Part shown: piece after piece, positions 4,839-41,244 of the stretch | Layout: every line of letters begins with the position of its first letter | Numbering within the stretch: position 1 is the first letter of the stretch | Origin: a virus | Direction: 5' to 3' (one strand) | Length of the DNA stretch: 64,000 nucleotides | Virus record (IMG/VR): IMGVR_UViG_3300045988_134824 | Span: 72,744-136,743 of that record | Made by a program: the position numbers and the translations under genes | The notes under the pieces: model-generated | Seen by the model: only the letters and a program-made list of their open reading frames with translations | The model's database searches: none | What the model was told of the DNA's origin: nothing

Positions 4839-5139
4839 AAAGAAGGTTAGAACTATGAGAAAAGAAAATACAATGTACACTGGATTTTATGATATTCCTT
4901 GTCTTACTGGAAGAAAGAGTTTTTACGGTAAAGCAAAAGAAAGAGTTATCGACAATGGTTACGAGCTTAAATCATATGAAACTATTGTCTGTAAGTTAGT
5001 CAATGGAAAACTTATCCGATTGTGGAACGATTACAGCCCAACAACTATGAACCATGTAAACGGCTTCTTAGTGTTCCACGGTATGGAAAAGATCAAGAAA
5101 GCTGATTGGATGGCAATGGAAGTTAAGGAAGGAGCGTAA
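4822..5139 (+). CDS. hypothetical protein (likely start ~4856)
   Basis: ORF; RBS gaaagaaggttagaactATG. Confidence 0.45.
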   Translation: MKKSDRKKVRTMRKENTMYTGFYDIPCLTGRKSFYGKAKERVIDNGYELKSYETIVCKLVNGKLIRLWNDYSPTTMNHVNGFLVFHGMEKIKKADWMAMEVKEGA

Positions 5140-5143
5140 AACT

Positions 5144-5377
5144 ATGACAACGATTACTATATACAGAAACAAAAGGAACAAAAATAAATATATAGAAGTC
5201 CATAATGATGGACACTATCATAACTCAGTAAAACAGTTTATGCAATGGAAGAAAGATCACAATGGAAATCAGCTTGCCAAACCGATTAGAAATGAAATGG
5301 GTGATCGAGTGTTACATAGATGGAAAAAAGCAAACCTGATGACGTTACTGGAAGATTATGAACTGATTACAGCATAG
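5144..5377 (+). CDS. hypothetical basic protein (77 aa)
   Basis: ORF. Confidence 0.4.
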   Translation: MTTITIYRNKRNKNKYIEVHNDGHYHNSVKQFMQWKKDHNGNQLAKPIRNEMGDRVLHRWKKANLMTLLEDYELITA

Positions 5378-37760: not shown

Positions 37761-39368
37761 ATGGCAGCTAAGGATAACACAATGGTAATTACTAGAAAGA
37801 TTGCTTTGATTCCTGTCGTAAGTGAGCGAAAAGAATGGAAGAAAAGAATTAATGCTTTCTTAGAAAAAGATTTTCCAAGGAAAATTGAAGCAAAGAAGAA
37901 GCAGATTAAGAATACAAGCAAGCCAGAAAATAAAGATGGGTACAAGCTGCAACTCGCAGAATTAGAAAAACAATACGAAGATTTTAAAGAAAATAGAATC
38001 GAAGAATATACTCAGAAAATGGTTAACGATTATACATATGGTCTTGTGAGAGATGCAATGGAGAGTGAAGCAAGACGAAAGAATTACATTTTGTCTTACA
38101 TATACACAAAAATGGTACAGGATGGAGTTGGATATATGCCAACATTGAAAGATAAATATACATGGATTAAAGAAAATATTAATGTCGCATATAGACGAAA
38201 AGGAAGTAATAAAGGGAGTATCTTTGATGACGTTGACATTGATAATCCATTAGGTGGATACGGAACATGCTTCTCTCAGATATTAACAAGTAAGATCAAA
38301 GATTTGGTTAAGCAGGGATTGTTAGACGGCAAAGTGTCAATTCCAAGTTTTAAAATTGACTCGCCATTTACAATTGCAAAAGCATATTTTGATCTATATC
38401 ACGAATACGAAGATATAGCAGAATTAAAGAAACGTATTTATGATTCAGATTGCAAACTGTATTGTGGATTAGGTAACAAAGGTATTCCGACCATTGCAAA
38501 TTTCAAAGTAAATATCGGACACAAAGGAAATAGAGACGAGTTAATTTCTACATTGTTAAGAATATTTACTGGAGAATACGAGATTTGTGGAAGTACAATG
38601 CAGATTTCTAAAACAAAAATTATTTTAAATTTATCAATTAGAATTCCTAAAACACAGCTTGAATTAGACGAGGACACTGTAGTTGGTGTCGATCTTGGGG
38701 TTGCAATTCCAGCGGTATGTTCTTTGAATAATAACAAATATAAGAGAGAGTATATTGGTAGTAGTGACGATTTTATTAGAATGAGAACGAAATTACAGCA
38801 CGAGAAACAGCAGTTACAGAAAGCATTAAAGATGTCAAAAGGTGGACATGGAAGAAAAAGAAAGTTGTTGGCATTAGAAAGATGTAAAAAGAAAGAACAT
38901 AACTTTGTTGAAACATACTGCCACAAAGTAAGCAAGAAAGTAGTTGATTTTGCGGTCAAGAATAAAGCGAAATATATCAATGTAGAAAATCTTTCGGGAT
39001 ATGATTCAAGTAAATTCATTTTAAGAAATTGGAGTTTTTACAAACTTCAGCAATACATAGAATATAAAGCTGCGAAATATGGTATTGAAGTTAGAAAAAT
39101 AAATCCATCATTCACATCTCAGGTATGTAGTTTCTGTGGACATTGGGAAGATGGGCAGAGGAAAGATCAAGCAACATTTGTTTGTGGTAATCCTAATTGT
39201 GAAAGCCATAAATTACATATGGTAAATGCAGACTATAATGCATCAAGAAATATTGCAATGTCAACATTATTTACGAGCGATAAATTCCAATTTTGTAAAA
39301 AGACGATGCAAAATGCGGCGGAGTATTACGGTATCCAACTAGATAATGAAGATCAATTAGCAGCGTAA
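37761..39368 (+). CDS. TnpB-like / Cas12-like (type V) RuvC nuclease, 535 aa
   Basis: RuvC-I VGVDLGVAIPAVCS (D ~38691). RuvC-II KYINVENLSG (E ~38984). Zn finger CSFCGH..CGNPNC. RuvC-III HMVNADYNASRNIA (D ~39231). Immediately followed by CRISPR-like arrays. Confidence 0.85.
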   Translation: MAAKDNTMVITRKIALIPVVSERKEWKKRINAFLEKDFPRKIEAKKKQIKNTSKPENKDGYKLQLAELEKQYEDFKENRIEEYTQKMVNDYTYGLVRDAMESEARRKNYILSYIYTKMVQDGVGYMPTLKDKYTWIKENINVAYRRKGSNKGSIFDDVDIDNPLGGYGTCFSQILTSKIKDLVKQGLLDGKVSIPSFKIDSPFTIAKAYFDLYHEYEDIAELKKRIYDSDCKLYCGLGNKGIPTIANFKVNIGHKGNRDELISTLLRIFTGEYEICGSTMQISKTKIILNLSIRIPKTQLELDEDTVVGVDLGVAIPAVCSLNNNKYKREYIGSSDDFIRMRTKLQHEKQQLQKALKMSKGGHGRKRKLLALERCKKKEHNFVETYCHKVSKKVVDFAVKNKAKYINVENLSGYDSSKFILRNWSFYKLQQYIEYKAAKYGIEVRKINPSFTSQVCSFCGHWEDGQRKDQATFVCGNPNCESHKLHMVNADYNASRNIAMSTLFTSDKFQFCKKTMQNAAEYYGIQLDNEDQLAA

Positions 39369-39530
39369 ATTATATGAAAATATATGGCATGTTTTGGAGG
39401 GAGTTCGATGCTCCCTCAGCCATAAAATAATATGACTATGCCAAGAGAGAGGAAAAAAATTCACTCACTAAAATTTGTGTAATTGAGCAAAACATAAAGT
39501 TTTGTATTACATACATAATTAAGATTTGAG
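39369..39530 (+). ncRNA. conserved unit U1 (leader / tracrRNA- or omega-RNA-like candidate) preceding array A; contains strong hairpin 39384-39424
   Basis: shares ordered blocks tatggcatgttttg(g)ag .. atgaYtatgccaaRag .. actcactaaaa .. atttgag with U2 and U3; ttgtgtaatt is complementary to repeat segment aattacaca. Confidence 0.4.
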
Positions 39531-39632
39531 GTTTGAGAACTATTGAAAATTACACAGATACAAAACATCCAGATAAATATTTTATTGACGTTGTCAGTTT
39601 GAGAACTATTGAAAATTACATAAAATGTATGG
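39531..39632 (+). CRISPR. mini-array A: 36-nt repeat gtttgagaactattgaaaattacacagatacaaaac (39531-39566), 30-nt spacer (39567-39596), distal repeat degenerate after nt 25 (39597-39632)
   Basis: read directly. Confidence 0.7.
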
Positions 39633-39770
39633 CATGTTTTGAGAAATTTTATATCCAATGTAAATTTTCTGATCATAAGAAATATGATTATGCCAAAAGT
39701 GAGATTTAAAAATAATACTCACTAAAACCTATGTGATAAAGTATCAAAATTGGACAAAGATGAAATTGAG
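39633..39770 (+). ncRNA. conserved unit U2 preceding array B
   Basis: contains stem AGTGAGA-tttaaaaataa-TACTCACT; segments acctatgt and gtatcaaa are complementary to the B repeat variant (acataggt, tttgatac). Confidence 0.4.
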
Positions 39771-39938
39771 GTTTGATACCTATTAAAAATTACATAGGTA
39801 CAAAACATGTTTTGATCTTCAGCACCTGATACAAAGTTTGATACCTATTAAAAATTACATAGGTACAAAACACAATCGGCATCCGATCTTTTCGCTGCCT
39901 GAGTTTGATACCTATTAAAAATTACACAAAGTGTGTGG
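39771..39938 (+). CRISPR. mini-array B: repeat gtttgatacctattaaaaattacataggtacaaaac x2 (39771-39806, 39836-39871), spacers 29 nt (39807-39835) and 31 nt (39872-39902), third repeat degenerate after nt 24 (39903-39938)
   Basis: read directly. Confidence 0.7.
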
Positions 39939-40037
39939 TGTGTTCTGGAGATTTTATCTCGTCTATCAAATAGGTAGATACGCCAAAAGTGAGACATGAA
40001 TGTACTCACTAAAATCTATGTTAGTTGAATATTTGAG
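39939..40037 (+). ncRNA. conserved unit U3 preceding array C
   Basis: stem AGTGAGA-catgaatg-TACTCACT has the same stem as U2 with a different loop; ends ..atttgag like U1/U2. Confidence 0.35.
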
Positions 40038-40139
40038 GTTTAAGACCTATCAAATTTAACACAGGTACAGAACTCTGACGTGCTTCATTTTATTCGATCG
40101 TGCGTAAAAGACCTATCAAATTTAACAAAATCAAAAGGA
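40038..40139 (+). CRISPR. mini-array C: repeat gtttaagacctatcaaatttaacacaggtacagaac (40038-40073), 30-nt spacer (40074-40103), degenerate terminal repeat gtaaaagacctatcaaatttaacaaaatc.. (40104-40139)
   Basis: read directly. Confidence 0.6.
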
Positions 40140-40152
40140 AATTAAACGAAAA

Positions 40153-40320
40153 ATGAAATCAAGACAGCAACGTGAACAGGAAATAAAACGATTCTTTGAT
40201 CGGCTGAGTCCCAGTGAATTGGACAGGCTGTTAGAAAGAAATGGAATTAATGATAAAGAGTCTGATGAGGCTCTTGCATATAGAATTATTAAAGAAGAAA
40301 TTGAGAAAGGAGAGATATAA
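40153..40320 (+). CDS. small charged protein (55 aa), not in ORF track
   Basis: ATG 40153; MKSRQQREQEIKRFFDRLSPSELDRLLERNGINDKESDEALAYRIIKEEIEKGEI. Confidence 0.3.
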   Translation: MKSRQQREQEIKRFFDRLSPSELDRLLERNGINDKESDEALAYRIIKEEIEKGEI

Positions 40321-40625
40321 TGAACAACTTCTTATATATTGAATCACGGGAAGAAGAGAATACATCCCTCGATTCTAAACGTGTTTTATTGAATGAAGAA
40401 AATTACAAACATATTATTTCATCATTAGATCATTATCCACCGACGGCAGACGAAGTTAAGAAAGCAATTTGTATTTTGACTGGACGATTGATCTACAGAA
40501 GCGTTTGGAATATGGAATCTGATATTGATAGTTTAAATATGAGTTTATCACCGCCAAAAGAAATGACGGTTGCAGAAATTGAAAAGGAACTTGGTTATAA
40601 AGTTAAGATTGTAAAGGAGAAATAA
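40320..40625 (+). CDS. hypothetical protein (101 aa)
   Basis: ORF with RBS. Confidence 0.45.
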   Translation: MNNFLYIESREEENTSLDSKRVLLNEENYKHIISSLDHYPPTADEVKKAICILTGRLIYRSVWNMESDIDSLNMSLSPPKEMTVAEIEKELGYKVKIVKEK

Positions 40626-40936
40626 TGCCAATGGCAAAAAAGAAACAAGGAATGTCGTTTGAAATGATGATGCAAAATATGGAAATTAATCCAAGGCAAT
40701 TGTATCGTCGTAGTTCGTGGAAGAAGACACGAACAACTTATGATTATGTGTTTATGATGTGCGAAGAAGAATTAAATGAGATTATTCCATTTGATAAAAA
40801 ATATAAAATGAAACCACTCTTATGTAGAGACCAAAATGGAGTTATAACATTGGGATGGTTGCCTACACAAGAGGATATTTTCGCAAATGATTGGGTTGAG
40901 CAAGGATGGGATTTTAACAGTAAAAGGAAGAGGTGA
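40625..40936 (+). CDS. hypothetical protein (103 aa)
   Basis: ORF. Confidence 0.45.
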   Translation: MPMAKKKQGMSFEMMMQNMEINPRQLYRRSSWKKTRTTYDYVFMMCEEELNEIIPFDKKYKMKPLLCRDQNGVITLGWLPTQEDIFANDWVEQGWDFNSKRKR

Positions 40937-40944
40937 ATAATTAA

Positions 40945-41244
40945 TTGAATTTTATAAAAGCAATGATCGCAATAAAAAAAGACAAAACTACTATAAGAAG
41001 AGGCATTTGGGGAAAGGAAAAGTATTTGAAAATTTATTCGTCAGAATTAACTAATGTTTATTTTGAGTGTAATGATATGGGTGAATATAAGCCAGATTCA
41101 ATTATTTTTTTATTTGATAAAGAAAACGCAGAAGTTTGGATACCTCTTGCGGAAGATGTATATGCAGATGACTGGGAAATATATGTTGAATCGGTTAAAA
41201 AGCCAAATCAATCAAAAGCAAAGGTGAAGGAGAAAGAAGAATGA
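40945..41244 (+). CDS. hypothetical protein (99 aa)
   Basis: ORF. Confidence 0.4.
   Translation: MNFIKAMIAIKKDKTTIRRGIWGKEKYLKIYSSELTNVYFECNDMGEYKPDSIIFLFDKENAEVWIPLAEDVYADDWEIYVESVKKPNQSKAKVKEKEE

Follow-up and report, generated by a model that had tools for sequence, protein, structure and literature searches.

We analysed a stretch of 64,000 nucleotides (nt), referred to below as the window, which covers positions 72,744 to 136,743 of the IMG/VR virus record IMGVR_UViG_3300045988_134824 and which is DNA of a large gut phage, encoding a PolC-like DNA polymerase, a DnaB-like helicase, a RecJ-like exonuclease and an anti-repressor. The subject of this report is a guide region at 39369-40139 of the window, in which three consecutive units (also called modules or cassettes) lie directly 3' of a 535-amino-acid (aa) open reading frame (ORF) for a Cas12f-family nuclease, an effector of CRISPR systems (named after short palindromic repeats that are clustered and regularly interspaced). 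Each unit is made up of a conserved block U (~100-150 nt; U1, U2 and U3), 36-nt repeats, 29-31-nt spacers and a last repeat that is cut after nt 24, and U1 starts 13 nt past the cas12f stop codon. Direct reading finds this layout as it had been proposed earlier from the letters of the DNA (the original prediction), together with the ordered motifs common to the U blocks (TGGYRTGTTYTG, AYGCCAARAG and ACTCACTAAAA), an AGTGAG/CTCACT stem with differing loops, array-specific repeat variants, and tracts complementary to the adjoining repeat both in U1 (TGTGTAATT with AATTACACA) and in U2 (ACCTATGT and GTATCAAA with ACATAGGT and TTTGATAC). Two features were absent from that proposal, namely that the upstream gene is cas12f and that U and repeat share a second contact, between a hexamer in U and the 3' end of the repeat.

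The nuclease gene and the U blocks

Profile, sequence and fold all place the product of the 535-aa ORF in the Cas12f family of nucleases. It carries the Pfam domains Cas12f1-like_TNB and OrfB_IS605 and matches the NCBIfam model guided_TnpB, with Cas12f2 below its cut-off. The best PDB matches by sequence are CnCas12f1 (8hr5, E 4e-66) and Al3Cas12f (9nzo/9nzr, 1e-64), with ISDra2 TnpB at E 7e-07 only; by sequence, nothing in PDB matches the N-terminal half. The AlphaFold2 (AF2) model (predicted local distance difference test, pLDDT, 85.8) finds Cas12f structures as its best Foldseek matches, over the full length and ahead of TnpB, and 21 homologues show no variation at the RuvC residues D311, E409 and D491 or at the zinc-finger cysteines. 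The protein family counts 1312 database proteins at E <= 1e-20, many of them on 140-230-kb contigs. Among the ten flanking ORFs, the only ones tested, none has a Pfam match to Cas1, Cas2 or Cas4 and none is csn2.

Cas12f effectors need a trans-activating CRISPR RNA (tracrRNA). The closest characterised Cas12f loci encode it between the nuclease gene and the array, on the same strand and with no other cas genes, and described Cas12f loci have one tracrRNA and one array. Given this precedent, one tracrRNA would be expected where U1 lies, but not three.

Comparative folding indicates that the U blocks are structured RNAs. RNAalifold on 28 distinct U units gave 27 pairs, 16 of them compensatory. 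In the consensus structure, helix P1 encloses a free hexamer and the helices P2 and P3, and is followed by P4, a run of A residues and a single-stranded tail; U1, U2 and U3 of the window, folded singly, take the same shape (z-scores of -2.2, -3.4 and -2.4, respectively). Several columns of the U alignment are rich in G-U pairs (e.g., 20/31 at one P3 pair), which fixes the + strand as the one that encodes the RNA, because these pairs would be A-C mismatches on the opposite strand. A covariance model of U (model R1) has exactly three matches in the window, one per unit (Table 1). Over 81 sources, made up of the window plus 80 related viral loci, it has 181 matches, every one on the same strand as cas12f. 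For 87 distinct distant U units, 95.5% of cells are paired versus 33-43% when partners are slid, with 26 of 27 pairs compensatory, figures that carry the caveat that this alignment was fitted to the covariance model. No Rfam family matches the U units, whether at gathering scores across the window or at E-value thresholds across 39300-40200, where matches are at chance level only.

Pairing of each U block with its own repeat

The evidence for a cognate relation between scaffold and repeat comes from alignment A3, which holds 31 distinct pairs of U and first repeat, taken from 10 related phage loci as well as the window (in the labels of this analysis, L001-L083 are related viral loci and L084-L092 are contigs targeted by spacers). 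Over the four U helices and the two helices formed between U and repeat, 98.9% of cells are paired, and sliding the partners by 1-3 columns lowers this to 34-53%. Both-side changes are found at 22 of the 44 pairs, and 0 of 500 shuffles reach these values.

The two contacts between U and repeat are separate. In helix A, a 10-nt anti-repeat that follows CTCACTAAAA pairs with nt 19-28 of the repeat; 98.7% of cells are paired over the 31 pairs, with both-side changes at 4 of the 10 positions, and columns 112/147, 114/145, 118/141 and 120/139 alternate between A-U, U-A and G-C. Helix B joins the hexamer that comes after the 5' strand of P1 to repeat nt 31-36, the final six ahead of the spacer, with 98.9% of cells paired and UA->CG changes at two positions. 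The partners of helix B are GTTTTG/CAAAAC for U1 and U2, and GTTCTG with CAGAAC or CGGAAC for U3 and its orthologues; in unit 2 of L036 they are GTTTCG/CGAAAC. The four cassettes examined in the distant locus L034 show TTTCG/CGAAA, CTTTG/CAAAG, TTTCG/CGAAA and TTTCA/TGAAA.

With both contacts summed, the cognate repeat scores best for every U of the window. Across 50 distant modules, cognate pairs have a mean score of 14.2/16 versus 12.2/16 for non-cognate pairs, with a median rank of 0.16, a result that is supportive but not clean since orthologous modules of sister phages blur the contrast. Overall, the claim of the original prediction that each array has its own cognate, tracrRNA-like scaffold or anti-repeat RNA is borne out by the conserved helices, the co-variation of the repeats and the adjoining Cas12f. 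Homologous loci do conserve and covary the U units, and it is through these related loci, not through a single sequence, that the complementarity rises above shuffled controls.

U and its first repeat also fold together in cis, into a hairpin resembling a single guide (z-scores of -4.5, -4.2 and -2.5). The distance from the end of the anti-repeat to the first repeat is 13-47 nt in the window, with 13 nt in module 3, and it is ~5 nt in some distant loci. A terminator scan found none between U and repeat, its only matches being a hairpin inside spacer S2b. The linker of module 1 holds a conserved small hairpin (CAAAAC-ATAAA-GTTTTG), which in L001 and L003 has a CAGAAC/GTTCTG version.

Distribution, spacers and neighbourhood of the cassettes

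The cassette layout is widespread. Three modules are kept in L001-L003, at 97% protein identity to the window phage, and 2-4 modules in ten further loci at 62-70% identity; the cassettes and the cas12f gene co-occur in all related loci. In 50 more distant loci, at least two units were found in 39, with five in some, located upstream and/or downstream of cas12f and, among the matches checked, never inside the gene. The same arrangement occurs in isolate genomes and metagenome-assembled genomes assigned to Clostridium, Roseburia and Butyrivibrio, and in one assigned to Treponema; this suggests Lachnospiraceae or Clostridia as the host. Most modules have a single spacer, while module 2 of the window has two and module 2 of L009 has three. 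The U paralogues of the window are 48-58% identical, whereas U orthologues at equivalent positions share 70-81% identity even between phages with Cas12f proteins at 62-70%; the cassettes are old.

Relative to the short-form U of distant relatives, the window clade has P2 and P3 inserted in the P1 loop. In L039-L059, L034, L026 and L033, U takes this short form of ~67 nt, with a simple P1 hairpin, P4 and the anti-repeat, and cassettes also lie 5' of cas12f, with the truncated last repeat abutting the ribosome-binding site of the gene. L034 and L026 have five cassettes each. Unit 2 of L014 (~4996-5190) combines the 5' part of L036 unit 2 (GTTTCG) with an array of the L036 unit-4 type (CAGAAC end). 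Comparison of L014 with modules 2 and 4 of L036 indicates that phages acquire and lose cassettes and recombine them with one another.

The spacers change faster than the scaffolds: four phages that are 97% identical have four different module-1 spacers with almost unchanged U units. Spacer S1 matches nine ~18-19-kb IMG/VR contigs (L084-L092), at 30/30 positions in six and 29/30 in three, next to a 5' flank of TTTT (e.g., L084 6432-6461, - strand). Eight of the 10 distinct module-1 spacers of related phages match other sites in the same element family with 0-3 mismatches, versus none of the nine module-2 and module-3 spacers. The ~18-kb element encodes an integrase, a large terminase (TerL), a portal protein, a major head protein, a scaffold protein and a ResIII helicase. 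The 14 kb examined contain no gene for a tail, and the element may be either a temperate phage of small size or a satellite that forms capsids. Across nine protospacers, T is present at -4 in eight and a pyrimidine at -3 in all nine, a flank that fits a putative 5' protospacer-adjacent motif of the Cas12f type, predicted as 5'-TY(NN). The module-2 spacer of L036 (~5176-5205) has its target in the cas12f of a rival phage clade, at 29/30 positions in L009 (4190-4219, - strand; 5' flank TTTG) and at 28/30 in the cas12f of L007, L008, L011 and L064, which looks like phage-against-phage targeting of a competitor's CRISPR nuclease. Given the spacer turnover between strains and the natural protospacers, the arrays are apparently in use.

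Exact 22-mers of S2a, S2b and S3 in IMG/VR, and of S3 also in a metagenome collection, found only copies of the same arrays, as did a degenerate pattern for the module-2 spacer of L005/L006, and 34 near-clade spacers joined as one query had no match in INPHARED. A spacer of L048 (~2593-2622, compared with 2646-2681 of L040-L043) is the reverse complement of 25 nt overlapping a spacer of L040-L043; it seems that one target region supplied overlapping spacers, on opposite strands, to these different phages. Module 1 of L003/L006 (L003 5770-5865) is chimeric, with a first repeat of the window/L001 type (GTTTGAGAATTATTG...) and a terminal repeat of the L002 type (GTTTAAGAACCATTA...), which suggests spacer exchange between phages by recombination.

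The features of the locus are collected in Table 1. A - strand ORF at 39461-39676 was rejected as a gene because it spans spacer S1, which is different in every related phage. Downstream of the cassettes lie two tandem Tad2-like ORFs (Thoeris anti-defence 2, PF11195) at 40625-40936 and 40945-41244 (+), and the region around the cassettes and these ORFs may be a counter-defence or conflict island. Farther upstream, an Rfam tRNA match at 33626-33764 (+; 43.8 bits) spans 139 nt, about twice the size of a tRNA, and ARAGORN reports zero tRNAs across the window; the match may be an interrupted or intron-containing tRNA. Among the phage records of INPHARED, the DNA of the locus is without a match, and the protein relatives there are distant TnpB-like genes only.

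Table 1. Positions of the nuclease gene and of the parts of the three cassettes in the window
Feature	Position	Strand	Evidence or remarks
cas12f-family effector gene, 535 aa	37761-39368	+	Pfam, NCBIfam, PDB sequence, AF2/Foldseek
Module 1, U1 block	39381-39530	+	
tracrRNA-like unit U1, helices P1-P4	39381-39489	+	Covariance model 103.6 bits; minimum-free-energy fold equals consensus
U1 hexamer GTTTTG	39391-39396	+	
U1 anti-repeat TTTGTGTAAT	39474-39483	+	
Module 1 linker	39490-39530	+	Small hairpin and leader end ATTTGAG (39524-39530) abutting the repeat
Repeat R1, 36 nt, GTTTGAGAACTATTGAAAATTACACAGATACAAAAC	39531-39566	+	
Spacer S1	39567-39596	+	Matches ~18-kb viral contigs 30/30
Truncated terminal repeat R1'	39597-39620	+	Repeat nt 1-24, without the tracrRNA-pairing part
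Module 2, U2 block	39626-39770	+	
tracrRNA-like unit U2	39626-39743	+	Covariance model 87.8 bits; fold z -3.4
U2 hexamer GTTTTG	39636-39641	+	
U2 anti-repeat CCTATGTGAT	39728-39737	+	
U2 second complementary tract GTATCAAA	39741-39748	+	
Module 2 leader end AATTGAG	39764-39770	+	
Mini-array 2	39771-39926	+	R2 39771-39806, S2a 39807-39835, R2 39836-39871, S2b 39872-39902, truncated R2' 39903-39926
Module 3, U3 block	39932-40037	+	
tracrRNA-like unit U3	39932-40030	+	Covariance model 89.6 bits; fold z -2.4
U3 hexamer GTTCTG	39942-39947	+	Complementary to R3 3' end CAGAAC
U3 anti-repeat TCTATGTTAG	40015-40024	+	
Module 3 leader end ATTTGAG	40031-40037	+	
Mini-array 3	40038-40127	+	R3 40038-40073, S3 40074-40103, truncated R3' 40104-40127

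Interpretation and comparison with known systems

Two contacts of this kind are known from solved guides. In Un1Cas12f1, the loop of a 5-bp stem (stem 3) forms anti-repeat:repeat (AR:R) duplex 1 with the repeat of the CRISPR RNA (crRNA) and positions the guide (PMC8053092). In the validated single-guide RNA (sgRNA) of Al3Cas12f, a hairpin loop GUUGGA faces the crRNA 3' end UCCAAC, the stem is UUUGAGG...CACUCAAAAAA, and after an A-run a 10-nt anti-repeat AUUCACUUGA faces UCAAGUGAAU, the crRNA segments being just 1-2 nt apart (PMC13186708). As their two duplexes with the repeat match this guide logic, tracrRNAs are the best reading of the U blocks. We consider it probable that the region is a phage guide locus of the type V-F kind, in which three tandem cassettes, each a tracrRNA with a mini-array, serve one shared Cas12f.

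In the mechanism that we propose, the tracrRNA of a U block would bind its own crRNA through two duplexes, one between the anti-repeat and repeat nt 19-28 and the other between the hexamer and nt 31-36. Together, helices A and B would grip the part of the crRNA derived from the repeat and set its 3' spacer in place as the guide, with which the one shared Cas12f, probably a dimer like its relatives, would cut DNA carrying a T-rich 5' flank. The cassette RNAs are presumably expressed, per cassette or as a whole operon, and one precursor would then span U together with the first repeat-spacer and fold as a natural counterpart of a single guide. A single precursor is suggested by the shared strand, the 13-47-nt gap, the lack of a predicted terminator and the stable combined fold, and one RNA is plausible in module 3 in particular because 13 nt are too short for a terminator plus a promoter. 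Host RNases would trim the precursor, and the first guide could act either fused or after trimming. Further spacers, such as S2b and those of the three-spacer module of L009, would use the tracrRNA in trans, since the full-length downstream repeats keep both pairing sites; the truncated last repeat, which lacks these, cannot form a guide handle. The earlier suggestion of scaffold and guide in one RNA could well hold for the first spacer in every module, but the second spacer of module 2 needs a trans-acting tracrRNA. The system as a whole would attack rival mobile elements during infection.

Several observations weigh against this reading or against parts of it. The covariation counts use related sequences and a structure partly derived from those same sequences, although the slid controls argue against this derivation as the cause of the pairing signal. 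In a test confined to the window, the duplex energy of U tail and repeat was compared with 1000 dinucleotide shuffles: 0-1 shuffles were as good as the U2-R2 duplex (-18.9 kcal/mol), 27-43 as good as U1-R1 (-14.1 kcal/mol) and 182-192 as good as U3-R3 (-8.9 kcal/mol), the last being not significant. Within the window, the complementarity is statistically convincing for U2 only, and we take the comparative evidence to be decisive. U1 can also pair with R2 via G-U pairs, and because of this the cassettes are not strictly orthogonal. Unit 2 of L014 has one mismatch in the hexamer contact and looks recombinant. The likeness to validated tracrRNAs is architectural only, in order and geometry, as seen with the Al3Cas12f sgRNA, and model R1 found no match in TnpB/Cas12f-like loci of Bacteroidales/Flavobacteriia save one with E = 0.07. 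The assignment to tracrRNAs rests on architecture, position and covariation because profile homology to validated RNAs was not obtained. As for expression, promoter-like (sigma-70) sites are not enriched (5 versus 6.5 expected in shuffles), and the conserved TAAAAT box ends 3-4 nt 5' of P1, which is awkward for a transcription start that keeps P1.

Promoter assignments for the cassettes are uncertain. An A/T-rich -10-like box lies ahead of nearly every U. The best sigma-70 site, TTGAGA-16-TAAAAT at 39599-39626, is weak; it was not relied on as a promoter because such sites are not above shuffles and because it is too near P1.

A different account would take the cassettes as a set of single-guide genes similar to TnpB omega-RNAs, in which scaffold, linker, repeat and spacer act in cis only and U never works in trans. 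It draws on the same short gap, shared strand and missing terminator, on the ~5-nt gap of some distant loci, on the stable cis folds (z down to -4.5) and on the fact that most modules are single-spacer. But the two spacers of module 2 in the window and the three in module 2 of L009, with full-length repeats that keep both pairing sites, point to a tracrRNA in trans, and validated Cas12f relatives function with separate tracrRNA and crRNA; we therefore hold the cis-only account to be unlikely. A much poorer fit is the view that the U blocks are no RNAs at all and serve three independent arrays as DNA-level leaders with promoter and integration signals. Their leader position, the type II-A motif at their ATTTGAG/GTTT ends and the A/T-rich box ahead of them agree with it, but a DNA signal would neither keep four helices by compensatory, G-U-tolerant, one-strand changes nor change in step with two separate stretches of the repeat, which makes this view very improbable. 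The roles of leader and tracrRNA are themselves compatible, and U may double as a leader.

Repeat-like RNA anti-CRISPRs are known from phages. This background, together with the two Tad2-like counter-defence ORFs nearby, would speak for cassettes that are decoys, i.e., RNA anti-CRISPRs or solitary repeat units titrating a host Cas12f or another host Cas protein. An intact cas12f adjoins the cassettes, however, and co-occurs with them in all related loci, and spacer content changes between strains, with matches to foreign elements next to a consistent 5' flank, so that decoys are scarcely credible. We give equally little weight to a recent neutral tandem duplication of an ordinary tracrRNA-array locus without selective meaning. 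Tandem repeats do duplicate readily, and L014 and L036 differ by gain and loss of cassettes; but the paralogues keep their structure at 48-58% identity, positional orthologues persist at 62-70% Cas12f identity, multi-cassette loci are the rule in distant clades, the repeats have co-evolved with their own tracrRNA, and only module-1 spacers match the 18-kb element.

The reading of the region as tandem tracrRNA and mini-array cassettes raises the question of how spacers are acquired. The leader ends of the window read ATTTGAG exactly in modules 1 and 3 and AATTGAG in module 2 (Table 1), and the repeats start with GTTT. ATTTGAG/GTTT is the Group 1 type II-A leader-repeat junction, reported to be essential for spacer integration (PMC5382924). 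The exact ATTTGAG is present in 21 of 36 near-clade modules, and a ATTTGAGG[TC]T form in 34 of 106 distant modules, against a background of 0.028 TTGAGG per 110 nt. Together with these ends, the 36-nt repeats, the ~30-nt spacers and the lack of an adjacent cas1/cas2 suggest that U could double as a leader for borrowed host adaptation; the chimeric module-1 repeats of L003/L006 speak against borrowing and point to spacer exchange by recombination. A functional link to type II-A adaptation is a hypothesis. Going further, one can picture each cassette as a self-contained, exchangeable guide module, whose tracrRNA doubles as leader, whose spacers are loaded by host type II-A adaptation or by recombination, whose product is a single-guide transcript, and which is dedicated to an enemy of its own, with module 1 perhaps aimed at one ~18-kb capsid-encoding integrative element that may be a satellite. 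We offer this wider picture as a speculation and hold it to be unlikely.

The arrangement matters because one Cas12f is served by several diverged pairs of tracrRNA and repeat, each matched by co-evolution and compactly packaged. It amounts to a natural experiment on how far a tracrRNA:repeat interface can drift while compatible with one protein, and it would let viruses keep several short guide sets that evolve independently of one another. It also makes testable the questions of spacer gain without cas1/cas2, of a natural single-guide form for the first guide and of cassette specialisation by target. For engineering, it provides dozens of natural scaffold variants, both short (~67 nt) and long (~105 nt), for a ~535-aa nuclease, as well as multiplex layouts.

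Three kinds of known elements share some of these features. The TnpB omega-RNA (also reRNA, right-end element RNA, of IS200/IS605) belongs to a related nuclease fold, places its scaffold 5' of the guide and downstream of the nuclease gene, and possibly resembles the cassettes in making scaffold and first guide as one transcript. However, an omega-RNA overlaps the 3' end of the nuclease ORF, whereas U1 begins past the stop and U2 and U3 follow 260-560 nt further on; its guide is the DNA flanking the right end of the transposon, whereas the spacers here are bounded by repeats and vary between strains; and here there are no transposon ends and no tnpA, and the scaffold contacts the guide via repeat:anti-repeat duplexes. 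Since there is no ORF overlap and no transposon end, and the guides are repeat-bounded, the U blocks are not omega-RNAs. Of the idea in the original prediction that the locus bridges omega-RNA and tracrRNA, the functional analogy holds and the defining features of an omega-RNA are missing. The type II-A leader is alike in that U ends in (A)TTTGAG before GTTT, with 36-nt repeats ending in AAAC and spacers of ~30 nt, but there the effector is Cas9 and the protospacer flank is 3', in contrast to Cas12f and a 5' flank here, and no genes of a cas9-cas1-cas2-csn2 operon are present among the ten flanking ORFs tested. Virus-borne CRISPR mini-arrays are likewise short arrays on a virus, without adaptation genes nearby and with spacers against mobile elements, which here are the ~18-kb integrase/capsid element and the cas12f of a rival phage. 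The mini-arrays of archaeal viruses and the CRISPR system that Vibrio phage ICP1 directs against the PLE (phage-inducible chromosomal island-like element) satellite are of type I or effector-less and need no tracrRNA. To our knowledge, no virus-borne CRISPR of that kind has been reported with a repeated cassette of scaffold plus array.

The guides of the type V-F effectors (Un1Cas12f1/Cas14a1, AsCas12f, CnCas12f1 and Al3Cas12f, alias uCas) share with this locus a miniature RuvC/TNB effector, a tracrRNA encoded 3' of the nuclease gene and 5' of the array on the same strand, a bipartite contact with the crRNA, 36-nt repeats and a T-rich 5' protospacer flank. On the criteria that can be tested, the locus is, as judged from its sequence, a type V-F system. 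It differs from those named in that one nuclease gene is accompanied by 2-5 tracrRNA genes, each with its own mini-array and co-varying repeat; the cassettes lie on both or either side of the gene in relatives of the window; P1 of the window clade carries the inserted P2 and P3; and the locus resides on large phages, with no adaptation genes among the ten flanking ORFs tested. A published natural locus with several tracrRNAs, or with tandem tracrRNA/mini-array cassettes, was not found in a literature coverage that is incomplete and leaves such absence unproven. The new element is that every mini-array has a tracrRNA of its own, with 2-5 such cassettes at a locus and many phage cas12f loci built in this way.

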